NCBI GenBank assembly: GCA_043810345.1
Contig: JBDROF010000102.1
Span: forward strand, 22,118-86,117
DNA length: 64,000 bases
Source: Bacteroidota bacterium
GTDB lineage: Bacteria > Bacteroidota > Bacteroidia > Bacteroidales > FEN-979
Direction: 5' to 3'
Shown: positions 22,059-59,523 of the stretch, one piece after another
Layout: every line of letters starts with the position of its first letter
Numbering within the stretch: the stretch's first letter is position 1
Program-made: the position numbers and the translations under genes
The notes under the pieces: model-generated
What the model was told of the DNA's origin: nothing
The model's database searches: none
Seen by the model: only the letters and a program-made list of their open reading frames with translations

Positions 22059-22979
22059 TCATGCTTTTGGATGAGCTTGTTGATATATCCGCTTTAACTT
22101 CTCTATCTCATTGTGTGTATAAACCTGCGTGGCTGCCAGACTGCTGTGTCCGAGCAACTCTTTTACAGCATTCAATTCCGCGCCATTATTTAGCAAATGG
22201 GTGGCAAAGGTGTGCCGGAGCACGTGAGGACTTCTTCTGGTAAGGGTTGAAACCTGAGCAAGGGCCTGGTTAACGATCCGGTACACCATCTTTGGATAGA
22301 TTTGCTTCCCTCCGTCAGTCAGAAAAAGCCAGGTTTGGCTGGGAAACAGGGACCGCTTCGTATCCAGATATTGCTTCAACAACCCTCCCATAGTTGAACC
22401 AAACGGGATAATCCGCTCTTTATTTCGTTTGCCGAGAACTTTCAAACTGGCTTGCTGAAGCTCCAGATCCTGTTCCTTCAGATTGATCAGTTCTGTCAGT
22501 CGTATGCCAGTAGCATAGAACATCTCCAGGATCAACCGGTTTCGAATGGCCGGATACCCCTTACCATAGTCGAGCTGATCAAACAGGAGATCTATCCGAT
22601 CCTGTTCTAAATAGACGGGGAGTCGTTTGCTGGTTTTAAGAGAGGTGATCCTGTTCATTGGATTGATCTCTACATCACCTGTTTTGATCAAATACCTGAA
22701 AAAGGATTTAAGAGTGGTCATCTTACGGTTCACACTCCGCTCACTGACTCCCTGCTCCATCAGGTAGACCAGCCACGAACGAATCATCGTATGATCTACC
22801 CCATCCATATCCCGGAGATCATAGTGGTAGTCCAAAAAATCGAAAAACTGGGATAGATCGTTATGATAGGCTGCAACCGTATGAGGCGAGTATCGCTTCT
22901 CAAACTTGATATATTCAATAAACTTCTCCTTCACCTCAGCCAAAAAAAAATAAGAAGAAACGTTGATGGGTTCTCCCAT
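22059..22979 (-). CDS. xerC: tyrosine site-specific recombinase XerC/XerD family
   Basis: 306-aa ORF with an N-terminal SAM-like core-binding region and the C-terminal catalytic ...HVLRHTFATHLL...LLGHSSLAATQVYTH motif. Confidence 0.85.
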   Translation of the reverse strand: MGEPINVSSYFFLAEVKEKFIEYIKFEKRYSPHTVAAYHNDLSQFFDFLDYHYDLRDMDGVDHTMIRSWLVYLMEQGVSERSVNRKMTTLKSFFRYLIKTGDVEINPMNRITSLKTSKRLPVYLEQDRIDLLFDQLDYGKGYPAIRNRLILEMFYATGIRLTELINLKEQDLELQQASLKVLGKRNKERIIPFGSTMGGLLKQYLDTKRSLFPSQTWLFLTDGGKQIYPKMVYRIVNQALAQVSTLTRRSPHVLRHTFATHLLNNGAELNAVKELLGHSSLAATQVYTHNEIEKLKRIYQQAHPKA

Positions 22980-23338: not shown

Positions 23339-23434
23339 CCCCTAAATCCCCTGAAGGGGACTTGTTCACGCGTAAAGGATGACCACTCCCCATCCCTCCC
23401 CTTAGAGGGGAGGGAGAAAGCCCCCTTTAGGGGG
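23339..23434. repeat. composite GC-rich hairpin element (three small hairpins)
   Basis: It comprises CCCCTAAATCCCCtgaaGGGGACTT, then CCCTCCCCTtagAGGGGAGGG (23394-23414, a perfect 9-bp stem), then CCCCCtttaGGGGG (23421-23434). The first and last modules recur at 58825-58877. The DPP-IV stop codon (23427-23429) lies inside the last hairpin. Confidence 0.85.
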
Positions 23435-25703
23435 TTTGGGGGTTGGTAAGGTTCTCGAGAATGAACTCCGTCATCCGTGTGTAGTTGTGCCAGGTAGTGT
23501 TCTTCCCGGAATAGATACCATGGTTGCTGTTGGGGTATACCTGCAGTTCAAACTGCTTGTTTGCCGCTACCAGTGCCGAAACCATGTCGTAGGTATTCTG
23601 GGCATGCACGTTGTCGTCAGCCATGCCATGGATGATCAGGAGGTTCCCTTTCAGCTTATCAGCATGGTTAACAGGTGAGTTATCTTCATAACCCTCCTCA
23701 TTTTCCCGAGGGGTGCGCATAAACCTTTCGGTATAAATATTGTCATAGTATTTCCAGTTGGTCACCGGAGCTACGGCGACACCCATGCTGAAATAATCAG
23801 CCCCTTTAGTCAGACAAGACAACGTGAGGTATCCGCCAAAACTCCATCCCCACATGCCGATCCGATGTGGATCCACGTAGGGCAACGTTCCCAGGTATTT
23901 GGCTGCTTCAATCTGATCCAGTGTCTCATATTTACCAAGCTGAAGATAGGTGCATTTTTTGAACTCCTGTCCACGGGCGCCGGTTCCCCGGTTATCCACC
24001 GAGACCACTAGGATGTCATGCTGGGCCAATAACTGGTTCCAGGCACTCACCGTTCCCCAACGATTGGCCACGGTCTGGGAACCGGGACCTCCATAAATCG
24101 TGAACAACACCGGGTATTTTTTCTCCGGATCAAAACCGGGTGGCTTCAGCATCCATCCATTTAGTTCCATTTCATCATCGGTGTTGAAGGAGAAGAGATC
24201 GGCCTGCTGGAAATCATACCTCTTCATAAGCTCCATCAACTTCTCATTGGTCTCCATAACCCTGATTTCCTCCCCGTCGGAGTTGTTCAAGGTAATGACC
24301 GGCGGGGTATTGATATCCGACCAGTTATTGATGTAAATGGTATAATCGGTGTTGAACTGTGCGCGGTTGGTCCCCTCCTTTCCAGAGAGCGTCCGTTTGC
24401 CTGATCCATCAAGGGCAATTACATTCACCTCCCGGTTAAGGGGAGAAGATTCGGCCGACTGAAAATAGACCAGCCCATGCTCTTCATCCACACCGTATAA
24501 CGATGTCGCGTCCCAGGGACCGGAGGTCAGCTGTCTGATCAACCTTCCATTCAGATCGTAAAGATACAGATGGTTATATCCATCTTTTTCACTGGAAAGC
24601 AATACCGATTCCCTATCCTTTAAAAATGTCCAGTCGTCGGTGATATCAATGTACCAGGGATTATTCTCTGTCAGGATCACACGTGATGAACCGTTGTTCG
24701 CATCCGCCAGCAGGAGCTCCAGTTTATTCTGGTGACGGTTCATCCGGTACATCGCCAGGGTATTGGGATCGGTTGTCCATTTGATCCGTGGAATATAGAT
24801 ATCCGTTTCTGTTCCTGTATCAACCGGAACGGTTTCACCCTGCTCCAGGTCATAAATCTTAATCGCTATCAACGAGTTATCCTCACCTGCCTTAGGATAC
24901 TTAAAGGTATAGATTTCGGGATAGATGTCGCCAAAATACTCCAAGGTATACTCTTTAACCTTCGATTCATCAAAACGGTAAAAAGCAATCTTTTTGCTGT
25001 TGGGCGACCAGAAAAACGCCTTGGTGAAGCCAAACTCCTCCTCGTAAACCCAATCGGTAGCCCCATTGATGATCGTGTTGAACTGGCCGTCGGTTGTGAT
25101 TTGCATCTCGCTAGTGAAGACCGGATCGTGGTTGGTATCATCACCCTGCCCGCCGCTCTTACCAGGATCCCAGATACCGGATGCCAGATCCCGGATAAAG
25201 AGGTTATTATCCCTGACAAAGGCCACTTTGTTCCCATCCGGAGAAAATGTGGCCAGCTGCTGCTTCTCGCCTTCTGATAATGGAACCAGCATCTTGGTCT
25301 CAATGTCAAAGATATAATAGAATGCTTTGGAAGAGTGGCGGTAGATCGATTCCCTTTCAGCAGCAAACAGGATCCTTGATTCATCCTGACTGAACTGATA
25401 ACTGGAGATCGGAACGGGAACGGTATCTCCTTTCGGGATCAGATCAGCAGAAGTGACAATGGTTCTCACATAATCTCCTGTGAGGTAGTCATACACGTTA
25501 AGACTATCGTTCTTAACCTGGCAAAAATATTGAACATCCTTAAGCGGGTGAATGTTATAAACACCCTTCGAGGAGAATGTCCTTTTCCTGATCACATCTT
25601 CGAGGGTAATTTGTTTATGTTCCTCCTGGGAATATCCTGCAACTGAAAAGCAAGCGAGCAGGAAAACCAATATTATTTTCTCTACCTTTGTTTGCATACC
25701 CAT
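23427..25703 (-). CDS. dipeptidyl-peptidase IV (S9B prolyl oligopeptidase family), secreted
   Basis: 758-aa ORF with a signal-like N-terminus, a beta-propeller region and a C-terminal hydrolase domain. The domain carries the nucleophile motif GWSFGGY and ...IHGMADDNVH.... Confidence 0.88.
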   Translation of the reverse strand: MGMQTKVEKIILVFLLACFSVAGYSQEEHKQITLEDVIRKRTFSSKGVYNIHPLKDVQYFCQVKNDSLNVYDYLTGDYVRTIVTSADLIPKGDTVPVPISSYQFSQDESRILFAAERESIYRHSSKAFYYIFDIETKMLVPLSEGEKQQLATFSPDGNKVAFVRDNNLFIRDLASGIWDPGKSGGQGDDTNHDPVFTSEMQITTDGQFNTIINGATDWVYEEEFGFTKAFFWSPNSKKIAFYRFDESKVKEYTLEYFGDIYPEIYTFKYPKAGEDNSLIAIKIYDLEQGETVPVDTGTETDIYIPRIKWTTDPNTLAMYRMNRHQNKLELLLADANNGSSRVILTENNPWYIDITDDWTFLKDRESVLLSSEKDGYNHLYLYDLNGRLIRQLTSGPWDATSLYGVDEEHGLVYFQSAESSPLNREVNVIALDGSGKRTLSGKEGTNRAQFNTDYTIYINNWSDINTPPVITLNNSDGEEIRVMETNEKLMELMKRYDFQQADLFSFNTDDEMELNGWMLKPPGFDPEKKYPVLFTIYGGPGSQTVANRWGTVSAWNQLLAQHDILVVSVDNRGTGARGQEFKKCTYLQLGKYETLDQIEAAKYLGTLPYVDPHRIGMWGWSFGGYLTLSCLTKGADYFSMGVAVAPVTNWKYYDNIYTERFMRTPRENEEGYEDNSPVNHADKLKGNLLIIHGMADDNVHAQNTYDMVSALVAANKQFELQVYPNSNHGIYSGKNTTWHNYTRMTEFILENLTNPQTP

Positions 25704-45890: not shown

Positions 45891-45911
45891 TGAATTCTGA
45901 ATTCTGAATTA
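45891..45911 (-). repeat. three heptamers TGAATTC TGAATTC TGAATTA (minus-strand reading TAATT CAGAATT CAGAATT CA)
   Basis: It overlaps the histidine-kinase stop codon (45909-45911). Same family and same gene-relative orientation as 50655-50682. Confidence 0.9.
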
Positions 45912-46958
45912 ATTAACCGGTATCCTCAACCTGACAAAGTACCTGTTCCCCTTTTTCCATGTTTTTAATAAATCATTCCGGTGATAAGTAAGCCTGAGTC
46001 GCTCTCTGATGTTGTTCAATCCTACCCCGGCCCCTTTGCGGGGAACGGCTTCCGGGTCAAAATCGTTGACAATGGTAATCTCAGTGAAATCAGATTCTAC
46101 CCTGCACTCCGTCTCAATCCGGACCTGGTCGGTACTTTCGTAAACACCATGTTTGATCGCATTTTCATAAAGCGGCTGCAATAACATCACAGGGATTTGC
46201 TGGTCATAGCAATCTTGACGGATATCTAGTTCATAGACAAGCTTCTCCCCAAACCGGATTTTTTCGATCTCGAGGTATCGTTGGATATTTTCAAGCTCTC
46301 TGGAGAGAGGTGTCAGGCTGTCGGCTCCGGATGAGACTGAATACCTCAGGAAATCCGAAAGTTTGATCACCATCTCCCGTGCCTTCTCCGGGTTACTCAC
46401 CGTCAGGGAACTGATGGAATTCAGGCTATTGAACAGGAAATGTGGATTGATTTGAGATTTCAACATATTCAATTCGGTCTCTTTCAACAGGGTGTTTAAC
46501 CGGGCCTCCATCTTCAGTTTCTCCTCCAGGTTGAAATTGTATATCAACAGGTAGAATGTAAGTCCCACGAGAATATAGAGGAACACTCCACTGAAAAGCC
46601 TGACCGGGATGGATACATATAGAAAGTCGTTGTAAGCCGTCTGGCCCTGGAACAACGTAGAGAGCACAGAATATCCTACACCGAACCAGATCACGATGAT
46701 CAGCACCAATGAGGTCATATGGTTGAATATGATGTTGAAGCTGGACTTCCTGGTTGGTGAACTGTAGCGCACGATAAACCACATTGGCAGTCCGATCAGC
46801 GCAAAAAGAAGGTTGAAGATCAGGCTGTCGGCCAGGGCTATCTCAAGCGGAAAATGATATTGAAAAGTGAGAATGGAAAACTGGATCCCGGCCAGAAGGA
46901 TCCAGACCCCAAAATAGAGAATAGTTGTTTTTATGTTTTGAAATACAGGATGCTGCAT
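45909..46958 (-). CDS. LytS/YehU-type sensor histidine kinase
   Basis: 349-aa ORF with an N-terminal TM bundle, then ...LKSQINPHFLFNSLNSISSL... (His_kinase/PF06580-type H-box) and a C-terminal ATPase region. Confidence 0.85.
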   Translation of the reverse strand: MQHPVFQNIKTTILYFGVWILLAGIQFSILTFQYHFPLEIALADSLIFNLLFALIGLPMWFIVRYSSPTRKSSFNIIFNHMTSLVLIIVIWFGVGYSVLSTLFQGQTAYNDFLYVSIPVRLFSGVFLYILVGLTFYLLIYNFNLEEKLKMEARLNTLLKETELNMLKSQINPHFLFNSLNSISSLTVSNPEKAREMVIKLSDFLRYSVSSGADSLTPLSRELENIQRYLEIEKIRFGEKLVYELDIRQDCYDQQIPVMLLQPLYENAIKHGVYESTDQVRIETECRVESDFTEITIVNDFDPEAVPRKGAGVGLNNIRERLRLTYHRNDLLKTWKKGNRYFVRLRIPVN

Positions 46959-47959: not shown

Positions 47960-48958
47960 ATGAAGCTTTCATTTTACAAATATCACGGAACAGGCAATGA
48001 TTTCATTCTGGTCGATAACAGGGAAGGAACAATCGCACTATCGAAAAAGCAGATCGAACGTTTGTGTGATCGTCATTTTGGCGTCGGTGCCGACGGGCTG
48101 ATGTTACTTACTTCCGAAAAGGGGTATGATTTCGGCATGGTCTACTTCAATGCCGATGGGAACGAAAGCACCCTATGCGGGAACGGAGGCAGGTGCATAA
48201 CAGCCTTCGCACATATGCTGGGTATCATCGGTCAATCCGCCCGGTTTCTGGCCAGCGACGGCGAACATACTGCCAAAATCCTGAAAGACGAAGGGAATGT
48301 GAAATGGGTCCGGTTGAAAATGGCGGATGTAACTACCCCTCCCCTGGCCCCTCCCCAACAAGGGAGGGGAGTATCGGATATCGAAACAGATAAATCGTCC
48401 TTCGTCCTTCGTCCTTCGTCTTTCTTAATCAACACCGGCTCTCCCCATCTGGTTATCTTCGTTGAGAACGTGAGTGAAATAGATGCTGTATCAGAGGGCC
48501 GTAAACTCCGGGACGATCCCCAATTCGCCCCGGATGGAACCAATGTCGATTTCGTGGAGATCATGGAATCCAATCTCTTCGTCAGGACCTATGAACGAGG
48601 GGTGGAGAATGAGACACTCTCCTGTGGTACGGGGGTAACGGCGGCAGCAATGGCCTATGCCAGTTGGCAGTCCGCAGTCCGCAGTCCACAGTCCGCAGTC
48701 CTCAGTCCGCAGTCCGCAGTCCACAGTCCGCAGTCCGCAGTCCGCAGTCCAAAAATATCCAGGACCCAGCATCCAGGATCCAGCATCGAAATAGAAACAC
48801 TTGGCGGCAAACTGACCGTTTCCTTCCGGTTTGAGGATGGAACATTTACGGATATCTGGCTGAAGGGACCGGCGGAGCATGTTTTCAGCGGGGAGATCGA
48901 GGTTCGTGAAACGAGGGACGAGAGACGAGGGACGAGGGACGAAGAACTTAAGAGGTAA
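47960..48958 (+). CDS. dapF: diaminopimelate epimerase carrying in-frame repeat-derived insertions and a repeat-encoded tail
   Basis: The DapF core is recognisable: FYKYHGTGNDFILVD, NADGNESTLCGNGGRC, NTGSPHLVIFV, RTYERGVENETLSCGTG. The ORF is 332 aa versus 274 aa for E. coli DapF. The extra segments coincide with the repeats at 48336-48422, 48667-48784 and 48907-48958. Confidence 0.85.
   Translation: MKLSFYKYHGTGNDFILVDNREGTIALSKKQIERLCDRHFGVGADGLMLLTSEKGYDFGMVYFNADGNESTLCGNGGRCITAFAHMLGIIGQSARFLASDGEHTAKILKDEGNVKWVRLKMADVTTPPLAPPQQGRGVSDIETDKSSFVLRPSSFLINTGSPHLVIFVENVSEIDAVSEGRKLRDDPQFAPDGTNVDFVEIMESNLFVRTYERGVENETLSCGTGVTAAAMAYASWQSAVRSPQSAVLSPQSAVHSPQSAVRSPKISRTQHPGSSIEIETLGGKLTVSFRFEDGTFTDIWLKGPAEHVFSGEIEVRETRDERRGTRDEELKR
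48336..48370. repeat. GC-rich hairpin element (CCCCTCCC / GGGAGGGG family) inside dapF
   Basis: The sequence reads CCCCTCCCCtggCCCCTCCCcaacaaGGGAGGGGa. An 8-bp stem pairs 48348-48355 with 48362-48369, and the C-rich arm is duplicated at 48336-48344. It translates in frame as TPPLAPPQQGRG. Confidence 0.85.
48395..48422 (-). repeat. four phased heptamers TCGTCCT x3, TCGTCTT (reverse complement of the GGACGA words) inside dapF
   Basis: Read directly. It translates in frame as SSFVLRPSSF. Confidence 0.9.
48667..48750 (+). repeat. 12 phased heptamers (GCAGTCC with A/T variants), 84 nt, in frame inside dapF
   Basis: The units are GCAGTCC x3, ACAGTCC, GCAGTCC, TCAGTCC, GCAGTCC x2, ACAGTCC, GCAGTCC x3. 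The 21-nt super-period gives the peptide repeat QSAVRSP/QSAVLSP/QSAVHSP/QSAVRSP. Confidence 0.97.
48757..48784 (+). repeat. tandem 14-mer ATCCAGGA(C/T)CCAGC x2 inside dapF
   Basis: Read directly, immediately after the heptamer array. It is translated as ISRTQHPGSS. Confidence 0.85.
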
Positions 48959-51728: not shown

Positions 51729-53282
51729 ATGAAAATACTCCCTGTTGAAAAGATCCGGGAAGCAGACGCGTACACCATCGAACACGAGCCGATTACCGAC
51801 ATCGACCTGATGGAGCGGGCTGCCGGTAAATGTTTTGACTGGCTGTACCAGCATATACCCGCCACCCGCTCCGTTAAGGTATTCGCCGGAACAGGAAATA
51901 ATGGGGGTGACGGATTAGCCATCGCCAGAATGTTGGCTGAAAAAGGATACCTTGTAGAAGTAGTTCTTGCCGGTGATCCGGATACCCTTTCACCCAGTTG
52001 TAAACTAAATTACGACCGGTTTCTTGGGATCAAGGGTGGGAAAAGCAGATTTACCGTCCATTCAGCTCGGGGAAATTCAACTAAAGAGGCATCTCCCCTC
52101 CCTTTATGGGGAGGGGTCGGGGGAGGGGTCGTAATCATCGACGCCCTGTTCGGCAGTGGCCTGACGCGTCCCATCACAGGATTCCATGCAGATCTGATCC
52201 GGGCTGTCAACCAGTTGAAAGCACTCGTAGTCTCCATTGATGTCCCTTCCGGACTCTTCATCGATCAAACGGTAAAAGCGGAGAGCGATCCGGCTATCAT
52301 CCAAGCGGACTTCACGCTTACCTTTGCCCCGCCAAAACTGGCCTTCTTTTTTCCTGAAAATGACCCCTATATCGGGGAGTGGGTGCTGCTCGATATCGGA
52401 CTTTCAGAAGAGTACCTGAAACAGACGGAGGTGAAAAATTTCATGGTTACCGTGGCCAACGTCAAACCGCTTTTACGTAAACGTAATAAATTTGCTCACA
52501 AAGGAAATTTTGGCCACGCCCTGCTGATCTGTGGCGGAAAAGGGAAGATGGGAGCAGCCGTGCTGGCGGCAAGAGCCTGCCTGCAATCGGGGCCCGGACT
52601 GGTTACTGTGAGGGTTCCCCGTTCGGGAGTGGAGATCATGCAAACGGCCGTTCCGGAAGCCATGCTGGCGATCGATCCGGATGAAGAATACTACTCCGAG
52701 CTTCCCAAACTGGATGGATACACGGCCGTTGGGATCGGCCCTGGAATCGGTCTGGAGAAGTCCACAGGAAATGCTTTAAAGCATCTGATTCAGGAAGGTA
52801 TCCCGATGGTCATCGATGCCGATGCCATTACGATCCTGGGTGAAAATAAAACCTGGCTCTGTTTTCTTCCGCCAGGCAGCATCCTTACACCTCACCCCAA
52901 AGAGTTCGAAAGGTTAGCAGGCAAAACATCCAACGATTTCGAACGGAACCAGGTGCAACGGGAACTCTCTTTCAAATACTCCTGTTACATCGTATTGAAA
53001 GGAGCTTATACCGCCATCACCACACCCGACGGCAGATGCTTCTTCAACACCACCGGGAATCCCGGAATGGCTACCGGTGGAAGTGGCGATGTGCTGACCG
53101 GGATCATTACGGGATTGGTTGCCCAGCACTACCTTCCACTGGATGCCTGTTTGCTGGGAGTATACCTCCATGGACTAGCCGGTGACCTGGCTGCGGAAAT
53201 TACCGGCCACGAGGCATTGACTGCCGGAAAGATCATCCACCACCTTGGAAACGCATTTCTTTCGCTGTATGGAGAATTATGA
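51729..53282 (+). CDS. nnr: bifunctional NAD(P)H-hydrate repair enzyme Nnr (epimerase + ADP-dependent dehydratase), with an in-frame hairpin-element insertion
   Basis: 517-aa ORF with an N-terminal YjeF_N domain (...VFAGTGNNGGDGLAIARML...DALFGSGL...) and a C-terminal carbohydrate-kinase-like domain (...HKGNFGHALLICGG...GNPGMATGGSGDVLTG...). Confidence 0.88.
   Translation: MKILPVEKIREADAYTIEHEPITDIDLMERAAGKCFDWLYQHIPATRSVKVFAGTGNNGGDGLAIARMLAEKGYLVEVVLAGDPDTLSPSCKLNYDRFLGIKGGKSRFTVHSARGNSTKEASPLPLWGGVGGGVVIIDALFGSGLTRPITGFHADLIRAVNQLKALVVSIDVPSGLFIDQTVKAESDPAIIQADFTLTFAPPKLAFFFPENDPYIGEWVLLDIGLSEEYLKQTEVKNFMVTVANVKPLLRKRNKFAHKGNFGHALLICGGKGKMGAAVLAARACLQSGPGLVTVRVPRSGVEIMQTAVPEAMLAIDPDEEYYSELPKLDGYTAVGIGPGIGLEKSTGNALKHLIQEGIPMVIDADAITILGENKTWLCFLPPGSILTPHPKEFERLAGKTSNDFERNQVQRELSFKYSCYIVLKGAYTAITTPDGRCFFNTTGNPGMATGGSGDVLTGIITGLVAQHYLPLDACLLGVYLHGLAGDLAAEITGHEALTAGKIIHHLGNAFLSLYGEL
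52095..52130. repeat. GC-rich hairpin element (CCCCTCCC / GGGAGGGG family) inside nnr
   Basis: The sequence reads CCCCTCCCtttatgGGGAGGGGtcGGGGGAGGGGTC. An 8-bp stem pairs 52095-52102 with 52109-52116, and the G-rich arm is duplicated. It translates in frame as ..SPLPLWGGVGGGV... Confidence 0.85.
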
Positions 53283-58259: not shown

Positions 58260-58811
58260 CTATGTAAAACATGCGTCAACGAATTTTATTGCATTCCTCA
58301 ACCGCTCTTCCCCCAGGCCGGAAACAACACGGAAGTTCCAGCCACGTTCCAGCATCTCGTCGTAATAGAGGTTAAAGAGCTGTTCCCGCATGTGCGGATG
58401 CTCCCGTTGCGGATCCTCCTCCCAGGGTGTGTCGATATAGCAAAGGAGGTACAGATCGTAGGAATAGACTTCCAACTGCTTCAGGATCCAGGCATCACAC
58501 CGGCTGAATTTCACCTCACTCCAGATCTTGGTGACCAGCAGTTCGGTATCACAGAACAGGTATTGCTTACGGCCTGCATGACCATGAATCCATTTCTCTT
58601 TCGCTAATGCTTCCTCTGCTTCTTTCTCCAGGTTCAGCTGACCCCCGGCGATCGTCAGGATGTCATGTTCTTCATAAGGCCGGCCCAGCTGATCGATGTA
58701 CTCCCGGGCAAACTCCGCCACCCAGAGCGTGTGATAGTGGTTTGCCAGTTGCTCCGCCAGCATCGACTTGCCCGTTGATTCCGGTCCGGTAATAGCGATT
58801 CTTCTAATCAT
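58260..58811 (-). CDS. NadR-type AAA ATPase / ribosylnicotinamide kinase-like protein
   Basis: 183-aa ORF with the P-loop ITGPESTGKS, adjacent to pnuC as in NadR-PnuC modules. Confidence 0.7.
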   Translation of the reverse strand: MIRRIAITGPESTGKSMLAEQLANHYHTLWVAEFAREYIDQLGRPYEEHDILTIAGGQLNLEKEAEEALAKEKWIHGHAGRKQYLFCDTELLVTKIWSEVKFSRCDAWILKQLEVYSYDLYLLCYIDTPWEEDPQREHPHMREQLFNLYYDEMLERGWNFRVVSGLGEERLRNAIKFVDACFT

Positions 58812-58824
58812 ATTGTCAATAGTA

Positions 58825-58877
58825 CCCCTAAATCCCCTTCTGAAGGGGACTTACTCCCCCTTTAGGGGGCCGGGGGG
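58825..58877. repeat. composite GC-rich hairpin element, second copy
   Basis: The sequence reads CCCCTAAATCCCCttctgaaGGGGACTTactCCCCCtttaGGGGGccgggggg. Both modules are shared with 23339-23434. It contains the pnuC stop codon (58828-58830) and its last roughly 16 codons. Confidence 0.9.
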
Positions 58878-59523
58878 CATTTACGATCTTCCTCCTCCAT
58901 TCCACAAATCCAAAAATAGCAATTACCGTGAACACCAGGAACTGGAAAGAACTAAGGTAGAGGTTCAGCCAGGCAAACATCCCGATAGAGATCACATCGC
59001 CGATGATCCAGAGAATCCAGTGCTCGATCTTTTTCTGGGCCAGCAACCACATAGCAACGATATAAATGGCTGTGGTCACTGCATCCCAGGCTGGTATCTC
59101 ACTATCTGTAAACTGAACCAGAAGAAATCTGAGGCTAAAGAAGAAACCCGGGATGATCAGGGCATAGATCAGTAGGCCCCGTATCGACAGACGGGTTATC
59201 CTGATCCGCTCATCCTGTTCGTTTTTCCTCAACCAGTTGTACCAGCCATAAGCGCTCATGACCGCATAGAACACATTGATTCCGGCATAGGCATACAACC
59301 TGGAAGAGAAACAGATGTAGACGTAAATCAGTACATTGATGATTCCGAAGGGGTAAACGAGGATCTTCTCCTTTTTCATAAACCACACACTGGCAAGTCC
59401 GCACAACACAGCGAATATCTCCAGAATGGTTGTCTGGGTTCCCAGGATAACAAACGGATCGGTCAGCACGAAACGAAAGTTATTAACATCATGGGGCAAA
59501 GATATTTTAAAATGACGGAGCAT
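58828..59523 (-). CDS. pnuC: nicotinamide riboside transporter PnuC
   Basis: 231-aa polytopic ORF with ...VWFMKKEKILVYPFGIINVLIYVYI... and ...YGWYNW... PnuC motifs. The C-terminal ...NAPRPPKGGVSPLQKGI is encoded by the hairpin element. Confidence 0.85.
   Translation of the reverse strand: MLRHFKISLPHDVNNFRFVLTDPFVILGTQTTILEIFAVLCGLASVWFMKKEKILVYPFGIINVLIYVYICFSSRLYAYAGINVFYAVMSAYGWYNWLRKNEQDERIRITRLSIRGLLIYALIIPGFFFSLRFLLVQFTDSEIPAWDAVTTAIYIVAMWLLAQKKIEHWILWIIGDVISIGMFAWLNLYLSSFQFLVFTVIAIFGFVEWRRKIVNAPRPPKGGVSPLQKGI

Follow-up and report, generated by a model that had tools for sequence, protein, structure and literature searches.

How do closely similar GC-rich hairpin elements come to lie at four separate loci of one bacterial contig, two of them at the ends of genes and two within the reading frames of conserved enzymes? 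The loci fall in a 64,000-nt stretch, here called the window, that spans positions 22,118 to 86,117 of contig JBDROF010000102.1 (C102:22118-86117) from a Bacteroidales bacterium of the GTDB lineage FEN-979. Its genome (G000, assembly GCA_043810345.1) amounts to 2.96 Mb in 124 contigs, with 48% GC and 97% completeness. Its rpoB, with a best public match of 81%, groups it with uncultured Bacteroidales. A first-pass annotation, made from the letters of the window alone, had grouped the four loci as copies of shared modules and likened them to repetitive extragenic palindromic (REP) sequences, to transposable elements of the miniature inverted-repeat type (MITEs), and to the nested small dispersed repeats of cyanobacteria. 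We find that the family is real and that it is a Bacteroidales variant of a known, unexplained class of repeats, with the nuclease DUF559 as its candidate partner. With a probability of about 0.6, the loci are gene-less derivatives, similar to MITEs or REPINs (hairpin-forming REP doublets), of DUF559 cassettes, and belong to a selfish family of three-arm modules. Two components of this reading, the assignment of the loci to one family and the relation of that family to DUF559 cassettes through shared ends, are very probable in their own right.

The family is built of three-arm modules. Each runs (TA)-C arm-spacer-C arm-loop-G arm and then into a linker, A(C/G)T(T/A)A(C/G)T, and the whole may also be present as its reverse complement. 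Three types recur: M1 (CCCC-TAAAT-CCCC-TGAA-GGGG-ACTT), M2 (CCCCC-TTTA-GGGGG-nn-GGGGGG), and B (TACCCCTCCCC-nnn-CCCCTCCC-CAACAA-GGGAGGGG-AGTAAG). The modules are joined by a CTTACT/AGTAAG linker and usually terminate in TA, which adjoins the outer arm at 24/49 and 16/44 ends against a background of 4.5%. They are found singly, as inverted pairs, or nested into mosaics. The inverted pair is represented by a 52-nt A element, in which M1 and M2 face each other across one common CTTACT linker and which folds as a single long hairpin (-34.7 kcal/mol, z -3.1); B modules nest between the M1 and M2 halves, so that the proposed nesting of small repeats within one another is borne out. The arms are homopyrimidine or homopurine, and the blocks follow the order Y-stem, 3-6-nt loop, R-stem, short second loop, second R-stem, or the complement of that order. 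As had been noticed before, 23394-23414, 48348-48369, and 52095-52116 have a CCC(C)TCCC(C)/GGG(G)AGGG(G) hairpin in common, which is accompanied by a third arm in all three. The third arm had been described as a duplicated arm, a description that has to be corrected: among 78 asymmetric hairpins it is the mirror image of its neighbor in 46 and a direct copy in only 1, while 18 are ties and a further 13 lack it. The same counts rule out a role as an alternative hairpin arm, and a mirror repeat in the third block is the geometry needed for Hoogsteen pairing. Judged by sequence, with hairpin energies as the only energies computed, the architecture is that of the BoxC/PIT/TMECO intrastrand-triplex repeats. 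The TMECO consensus itself, CCCTCNCCC N3-6 GGGNGAGGG N3 GGGNGAGGG, has 0 copies in G000; because the architecture is shared and the exact consensus is absent, the modules are a sequence variant of that class. An Rfam scan of the window returned tRNAs only, and a literature search with the module motif strings returned nothing relevant. We note separately that the G-rich strand of the B module (GGGAGGGG-nnn-GGGGAGGGG, e.g., 52095-52128) has four G-runs and may be capable of forming a G-quadruplex.

All four loci in the window can be read in these terms. The composite mosaic at 23339-23442 consists of M1 (23339-23363), a nested B module (23388-23414), and M2 (23421-23442), and folds as one long hairpin (-56 kcal/mol, z -4.4). 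It lies 3' of a gene for an S9-family, DPP-IV-like dipeptidyl-peptidase (23427-25703, minus strand), identified through an NCBIfam Dpp5-like match whose E value of 5.5e-33 lies below the curated cutoff of the model. The last codons and the stop of this gene (23427-23442) fall within M2, and its open reading frame (ORF) ends in ...NPQTP. The canonical 52-nt A element, M1 + CTTACT + M2 with TA and CA flanks, occupies 58823-58879 between pnuC (58828-59523, minus strand; TIGR01528, 3.5e-32) and the next gene, and supplies the last ∼15 codons and the stop of pnuC. PnuC thus terminates in ...PRPPKGGVSPLQKGI in G000, whereas that of the congener G001 ends in ...EWRRKMV without the tail. These two loci share both their start, CCCCTAAATCCCCT(tc)GAAGGGGACTT at 23339-23363 and 58825-58852, and a second motif, CCCCCTTTAGGGGGnnnGGGGG at 23421-23442 and 58856-58877. 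The remaining two are B modules read in frame. One (48334-48373, plus strand; TA-CCCCTCCCC-TGG-CCCCTCCCC-AACAA-GGGAGGGG-AGTA) lies in the diaminopimelate epimerase gene dapF (47960-48958, plus strand) and encodes TPPLAPPQQGRG. The other, in the opposite orientation (52095-52128, plus strand; CCCCTCCC-TTTATG-GGGAGGGG-TCG-GGGGAGGGG), lies in a gene that the first-pass annotation named nnr, for a bifunctional NAD(P)H-hydrate repair enzyme (51729-53282, plus strand), and encodes SPLPLWGGVGGGV. The shared motifs, the element-supplied stops and C-termini, and the two translated inserts thus all stand as originally described. The product of dapF is 332 aa long, against ∼262-283 aa in other genera, and contains several heptamer inserts besides the hairpin module. 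These are located at 48395-48425, ∼48650-48770, and 48905-48955, all in frame; CCTTCGT units give SSFVLRPSSF, CAGTCCG units give four SPQSAV(R/L/H), and GACGAAG-type units give the C-terminal tail.

The modules are not limited to the window. CCCCTAAATCCCC, CCCCCTTTAGGGGG, and GGGGAGGGG occur in 22, 20, and 80 copies genome-wide, against 0.08, 0.02, and 16.7 expected from genome composition. A scan with a three-arm grammar (hairpin plus third arm) gave 248 raw matches in the genome and 10 in the reversed genome used as a control; the raw matches collapse to 108 modules in 79 islands, or ∼68 islands once dubious ones are dropped, with a total length of 2.7 kb. Patterns for the module cores gave 27, 20, and 23 matches against 0 in the reversed genome, and pure C/T 5' arms of the CCCTCCC type account for 81 of the 153 perfect GC-rich hairpin matches with stems of at least 7 bp, at 45 loci. 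The family is therefore dispersed genome-wide in many copies, far above the expectation from composition. With respect to genes, 28 of the 68 islands lie within an ORF whose frame is unbroken (for 24 of them, both gene ends are over 100 nt away), 11 lie across the 3' end of a gene, where, as in pnuC and the DPP-IV-like gene, they supply stop codons and C-termini, 2 lie across a 5' end, and 27 are intergenic, all of these counts being approximate since they depend on our own ORF caller. About 35-40% of copies are in coding sequence, where both orientations and several frames are represented. NCBIfam matches confirm as hosts, among others, ValRS, MurG, RsmA, IspE (two modules), TsaB, MtaB, and HemW, together with AckA, whose copy is C-terminal; the names of two further hosts, MutS and a delta-prime-like protein, come from the protein sequences alone. 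The insert peptides are rich in Pro, Gly, and Ser, as in TPPLAPPQQGRG and PSPGPSPTREGSKPPSGGLGV. The non-coding M1 copies lie at most 150 nt behind the 3' end of a gene in 17 of 18 cases, with a weak orientation bias relative to the upstream gene (13 to 4).

Comparison with other genomes shows the inserts to be lineage-specific. In other genera, dapF is free of inserts at both of its two hot spots, and the first of these holds the B module only in G000 and G003 and heptamer arrays in other congeners. The nnr loop contains a B-type module, intact, decayed, or interrupted, in most congeners, in the opposite orientation in G002, G004, and G007, and orthologues of other genera again have no insert. 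At the pnuC junction, near-identical 52-nt elements are present in G000 and G010 although the flanking proteins are only ∼76% identical, G001 is empty, and five other congeners have CCTTCGT arrays, with the C-terminus of PnuC differing accordingly. Empty and filled orthologous sites are thus both on record, and the segments are absent from relatives outside the genus. Hairpin elements and heptamer arrays replace each other between species at this one junction (window 58811-58830); the two repeat systems share insertion hot spots. A search for the M1 25-mer (at most 3 mismatches; controls gave zero) found it in 10/10 congeners, at 11-133 copies each, in 0/13 other genera of the family, and in 28 copies in one genome of another family. 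Across the order it is present in 43/401 genomes and is patchy even within genera, with counts such as 26, 48, and 0 or 0, 0, 0, and 52.

The connection to a protein came from a search for ORFs between distant inverted modules, in which genes for DUF559 were seen to be bracketed by modules. The full cassette is ∼0.4-0.75 kb long and has two inverted module ends, with a Vsr-like, PD-(D/E)XK nuclease of the DUF559 family as its sole gene; the protein is a clear member of DUF559 (PF04480, 7.5e-36), related to PDB 3hrl and weakly to 3r3p. From 25 Bacteroidales genomes we took 45-47 DUF559 genes that stand free and compared their 170-nt flanks with control flanks by folding energy in 50-nt windows, a test adopted because a stricter hairpin criterion undercounted the flank structures. 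A flank structure of -20 kcal/mol or lower is present upstream of 57% and downstream of 49% of DUF559 genes, against 4% and 11% for control genes (p 1e-12 and 2e-9), and in 18/44 the upstream and downstream flanks have an exact inverted repeat of 12 nt or more in common. Several types of three-arm module make up the flanks (M1, CCCTCCC, CTCTCC, and CCTCCT), for which an Rfam scan gave sub-threshold microRNA-like hairpin matches only. The type of flank tracks the nuclease tree, with 14 changes against a shuffled mean of 26.5 and 0/200 shuffles as low, and the M1-flanked clade covers four host families. One flank type, CCCCTTCTCC, is also scattered as solo copies in the genomes that carry it. 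The same bracketing of DUF559 is present in records of Cyanobacteriota, Deinococcota, and Pseudomonadota, from Pseudanabaena, Picosynechococcus PCC 7002, Deinococcus, Azospirillum, and Neisseria, with modules of the form CCCC(C)TAAATCCCC(C)-loop-GGGG(G)ACTT in the first two.

Aligned sites show the cassette in three states. At one intergenic site with both flanks aligned, G004 has a full M1-DUF559-M1 cassette; in G007 the boundaries are those of G004 (TTACCCC...GGGGTTA), but what lies between them is an M1 array and an inverted M1 without the gene; and G000 is empty; a second cassette site, in G002, is likewise empty in G000. Since a single orthologous site can be full, gene-less, or empty, the elements without a gene and the cassettes belong to one family, and the copies in the window are for that reason best read as gene-less derivatives. 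The cassette can also be read through: valS of G172 (G172:C16) contains an in-frame 420-nt module-DUF559-module block, KLYYLRYK|...|EYIVVATTRPET, at a site that is a short empty loop in its congener G025, 93% identical over the stretch, and leuS of G025 (G025:C24) contains a similar block. These two blocks lie near the start of the editing domain, in open frames of 1033 and 1086 aa. The comparison with MITEs and REPs is supported, with refinements. The elements are dispersed, form inverted pairs, and have terminal inverted repeats in common with a gene-bearing element, as MITEs do, with the qualification that the gene is no known transposase; because a gene for a REP-associated tyrosine transposase (RAYT) and a GTAG tag are both missing, they are not a REP/RAYT system. 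The gene linked to the repeats, present in other genomes, is the DUF559 nuclease and no transposase. A larger composite form is seen at G065:C40:2800-5200, where a 265-nt unit (M1, ∼55 nt, M2) lies on both sides of a DUF559 gene. In G000, a DUF559 gene at G000:C63:7217-7585 has an in-frame TAA and is directly followed by two B modules, and a decayed DUF559 fragment lies at G000:C20:6224-6340.

We propose that the modules are insertions of a selfish kind. They would persist where they land between genes, in most cases shortly after a gene, and also in protein loops that tolerate them, since arms rich in C or G stay open in the majority of reading frames and are translated as flexible loops of Pro, Gly, and Ser. 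The nuclease would recognize its own folded three-arm ends, possibly through exposed mismatches, and would copy or move them, and the gene-less modules of the window would be REPIN-like offspring of a full cassette. That the nuclease recognizes the folded ends and drives their copying is a tentative part of this scheme, to which we give rather less than even odds. Several observations weigh against the scheme or against the numbers behind it. The only DUF559 genes in G000 are two broken ones, from which it follows that the copies there are probably relics that no longer move. No DUF559 match was obtained in the M1-rich genomes G008 (67 M1 copies), G255 (41), and G315 (12), and the sole DUF559 of G007 (133 M1 copies) has a different end type, which may be due in part to the incompleteness of metagenome-assembled genomes (MAGs). 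The ends are enriched in TA, but two comparisons of filled with empty sites show no clear target-site duplication. We know of no nuclease activity or cut site for the nuclease of a DUF559 cassette, and it could be a passenger that landed in, or was kept between, pre-existing repeats. The controls of the flank test were 284 genes that all come from G000, gene positions and in-frame statistics rest on a crude ORF caller (2231 ORFs, 88% coverage), and the closest relative in a metagenome scan for the same strain had 79% protein identity.

The passenger model belongs to an alternative in which the modules are a structured motif of use to the host, either as DNA, folded into a triplex or hairpin, or as an RNA hairpin located at the 3' ends of mRNAs, and are kept by selection for mRNA stabilization, transcription pausing, or recombination hot spots and spread by gene conversion or recombination. 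We consider this unlikely. It would account well for the placement of nearly all non-coding M1 copies close behind genes, for a 25-mer that is almost invariant across families and phyla despite diverged host genes, and for solo copies that far outnumber DUF559 genes; TMECO sites are, moreover, tied to local genome instability by Holder et al. (PMC4666352). A host signal does not, however, explain why more than a third of the copies lie in coding sequence in both orientations and several frames, and the patchiness within genera is a misfit with a conserved host function. The elements also have no T-tract, and PIT elements are described in that source as having neither promoter nor terminator activity in E. 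coli. Nor does the passenger model predict that the nuclease lineage tracks the end type, or that inverted ends stand on both sides of the gene. Taken across phyla, the patchy distribution is more in keeping with selfish DNA that spreads horizontally than with a host signal under conservation.

Two further accounts retain the mobility of the modules and assign it to something other than DUF559. In one, which appears improbable to us, miniature elements are moved by another enzyme, such as a TA-targeting DDE transposase of the IS630/Tc1 type, or by host replication and repair through template switching at hairpins, and the same insertion hot spots also gather the heptamer arrays of the genome. 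The enrichment of TA next to the outer arm, the way in which congeners hold now a hairpin module, now a heptamer array at one and the same junction or loop, and the several M1-rich genomes without DUF559 are in line with this account. At two filled/empty sites, however, the TA (TTA) is part of the element itself and no second copy of it is visible, so that a TA target duplication is unsupported there. The inspected regions of G007, G065, and G170 contain no transposase-like ORF between or beside the inverted pairs, DDE families not having been searched for, and a transposase between distant inverted module pairs was discarded as a candidate since the ORFs found there are ordinary genes. The other account, a classical REP/REPIN system mobilized by a RAYT (Y1 HUH) transposase, is very improbable and already largely refuted. 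In its favor, the palindromes are short, frequently form inverted pairs, and lie for the most part behind genes and at times within them, as do GTAG and CGTC REPs (PMC3733652), and Y1 transposases are common elsewhere in the order. The RAYT profile PF01797, however, has no match in G000 or in the repeat-rich genomes G001, G002, G003, G005, and G008; across 40 genomes it shows no correlation with M1 and is equally common where M1 is missing, and the module consensus sequences contain neither tag. The derivation of the window copies from DUF559 cassettes thus remains the reading that we prefer.

Among known repeats, the BoxC/PIT elements (Bergler 1992 and Hoyne 2000, as cited in Holder et al. 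2015, PMC4666352) and TMECOs agree with the modules in their homopyrimidine and homopurine arms, mirror third block, and frequent inverted pairs, and the block layout matches the TMECO pattern given there. The modules depart from TMECOs in sequence: the exact consensus CCCTCNCCC...GGGNGAGGG is missing, the arms are CCCCTCCC, CCCC(C), or CCCTCTCC, and the M1 type is set by a conserved TAAAT spacer and an ACTT/CTTACT linker. They also depart in location. The E. coli TMECOs are, according to PMC4666352, always intergenic and unlinked to mobile elements, whereas here a large share of copies is in frame and modules end DUF559 cassettes. In both groups the copy number differs sharply between close relatives, and both are reported to be abundant in cyanobacteria. 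To the best of our knowledge, no enzyme partner is in print for either. The small dispersed repeats (SDR) of cyanobacteria are said to consist of 21-27-nt units that are nested and inserted precisely into conserved sequences, and reportedly coexist with heptamer arrays of the STRR (short tandemly repeated repetitive) type and have no known transposase; the likeness to the modules, whose host here belongs to Bacteroidales, is one of description only. Given M1-type modules on plasmids of Pseudanabaena and Picosynechococcus, the two families may overlap.

In behavior, and in behavior only, there is a parallel with the Rickettsia palindromic elements (RPE; Ogata et al. 2000, as summarized in PMC10969869), which are likewise palindromic inserts read through in frame in unrelated housekeeping genes and likewise have no known transposase. 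RPE are, according to that source, ∼100-150 bp long, AT-richer, and restricted to Rickettsia, whereas the modules are GC-rich, 25-60 nt long, have triplex-type symmetry, are found in several phyla, and form the ends of nuclease cassettes. The REP/REPIN-RAYT systems and REPtrons (PMC3116915 and PMC3733652) similarly combine single and inverted-dimer hairpins with a partner gene placed between its own repeats, a protein lineage that tracks the repeat type, solo copies that outnumber the gene, and known intragenic copies; the candidate partner here is a Vsr-like PD-(D/E)XK nuclease rather than a Y1 HUH protein, and the GTAG/CGTC tag is missing. Homing endonucleases of the Vsr-like (EDxHD) group, for instance I-Bth0305I (PDB 3r3p), which PMC3424549 lists alongside DUF559, provide a precedent for a small Vsr-fold nuclease as the sole gene of a selfish insert in conserved genes, with weak sequence similarity to the DUF559 proteins here. 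Unlike these, the DUF559 cassettes have no intron or intein around them and are read through in frame between linkers encoded by the hairpins, and homing does not account for the dispersal to many unrelated sites. In literature that mentions DUF559 we found no link to repeats. DUF559 domain-containing proteins are 14-fold enriched among predicted targets of programmed inversion in a table of PMC9881135, an enrichment that the inverted repeats bracketing these genes could explain.

If the nuclease does copy or move its own ends, the full cassette would be a new kind of mobile element that has one small nuclease gene and no intron or intein, and that survives in essential genes by means of GC-rich ends that are translated as flexible linkers. 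BoxC/PIT/TMECO repeats have been known since the 1990s without an origin, enzyme, or function, and a link to DUF559 makes their spread testable, for which this lineage supplies a natural series of full, gene-less, and empty sites. The wider proposal, that DUF559 nucleases are the missing protein partner of such repeats across many phyla, is one that we put forward as doubtful. The Bacteroidales variant, read through in about two dozen housekeeping enzymes, is a second, independent case of selfish DNA in proteins of the type known from Rickettsia. In practical terms, inserts of this kind lengthen and fragment gene models, interrupt MAG assemblies, and give essential enzymes loops that are peculiar to the lineage. 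In G007, tandem arrays of a 42-nt unit (M1 plus a CTGC-TTCG-GCAG hairpin) reach up to four units, and the presence of some of them at contig ends suggests that the repeats break such assemblies.

Other sightings of the modules are scattered. A possible mini three-arm module in the window, TACCCC-GG-CCCC-TTTGC-GGGG at 46019-46043 within an ORF at 45909-46958 (minus strand), is a doubtful case that was set aside as a possible chance match. Modules of the CCCCTAAATCCCC-loop-GGGGACTT type are present on cyanobacterial plasmids. Ten phage contigs contain M1 as a solitary 25-mer, a Spirosoma plasmid has it as an inverted pair, and phytoplasma plasmids have single copies of it, while M2 has a 23/24 match in bajarodmic viruses (Microviridae-like ssDNA phages of ∼4.6 kb from rodent feces). 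On the phytoplasma plasmid p05PLY-2 (Periwinkle leaf yellowing), a 24/25 match to M1 lies at 453-477 in an AT-rich non-coding region upstream of ssb, and related plasmids have it too; these tiny Mollicute plasmids are an unexpected host for a GC-rich Bacteroidales repeat.

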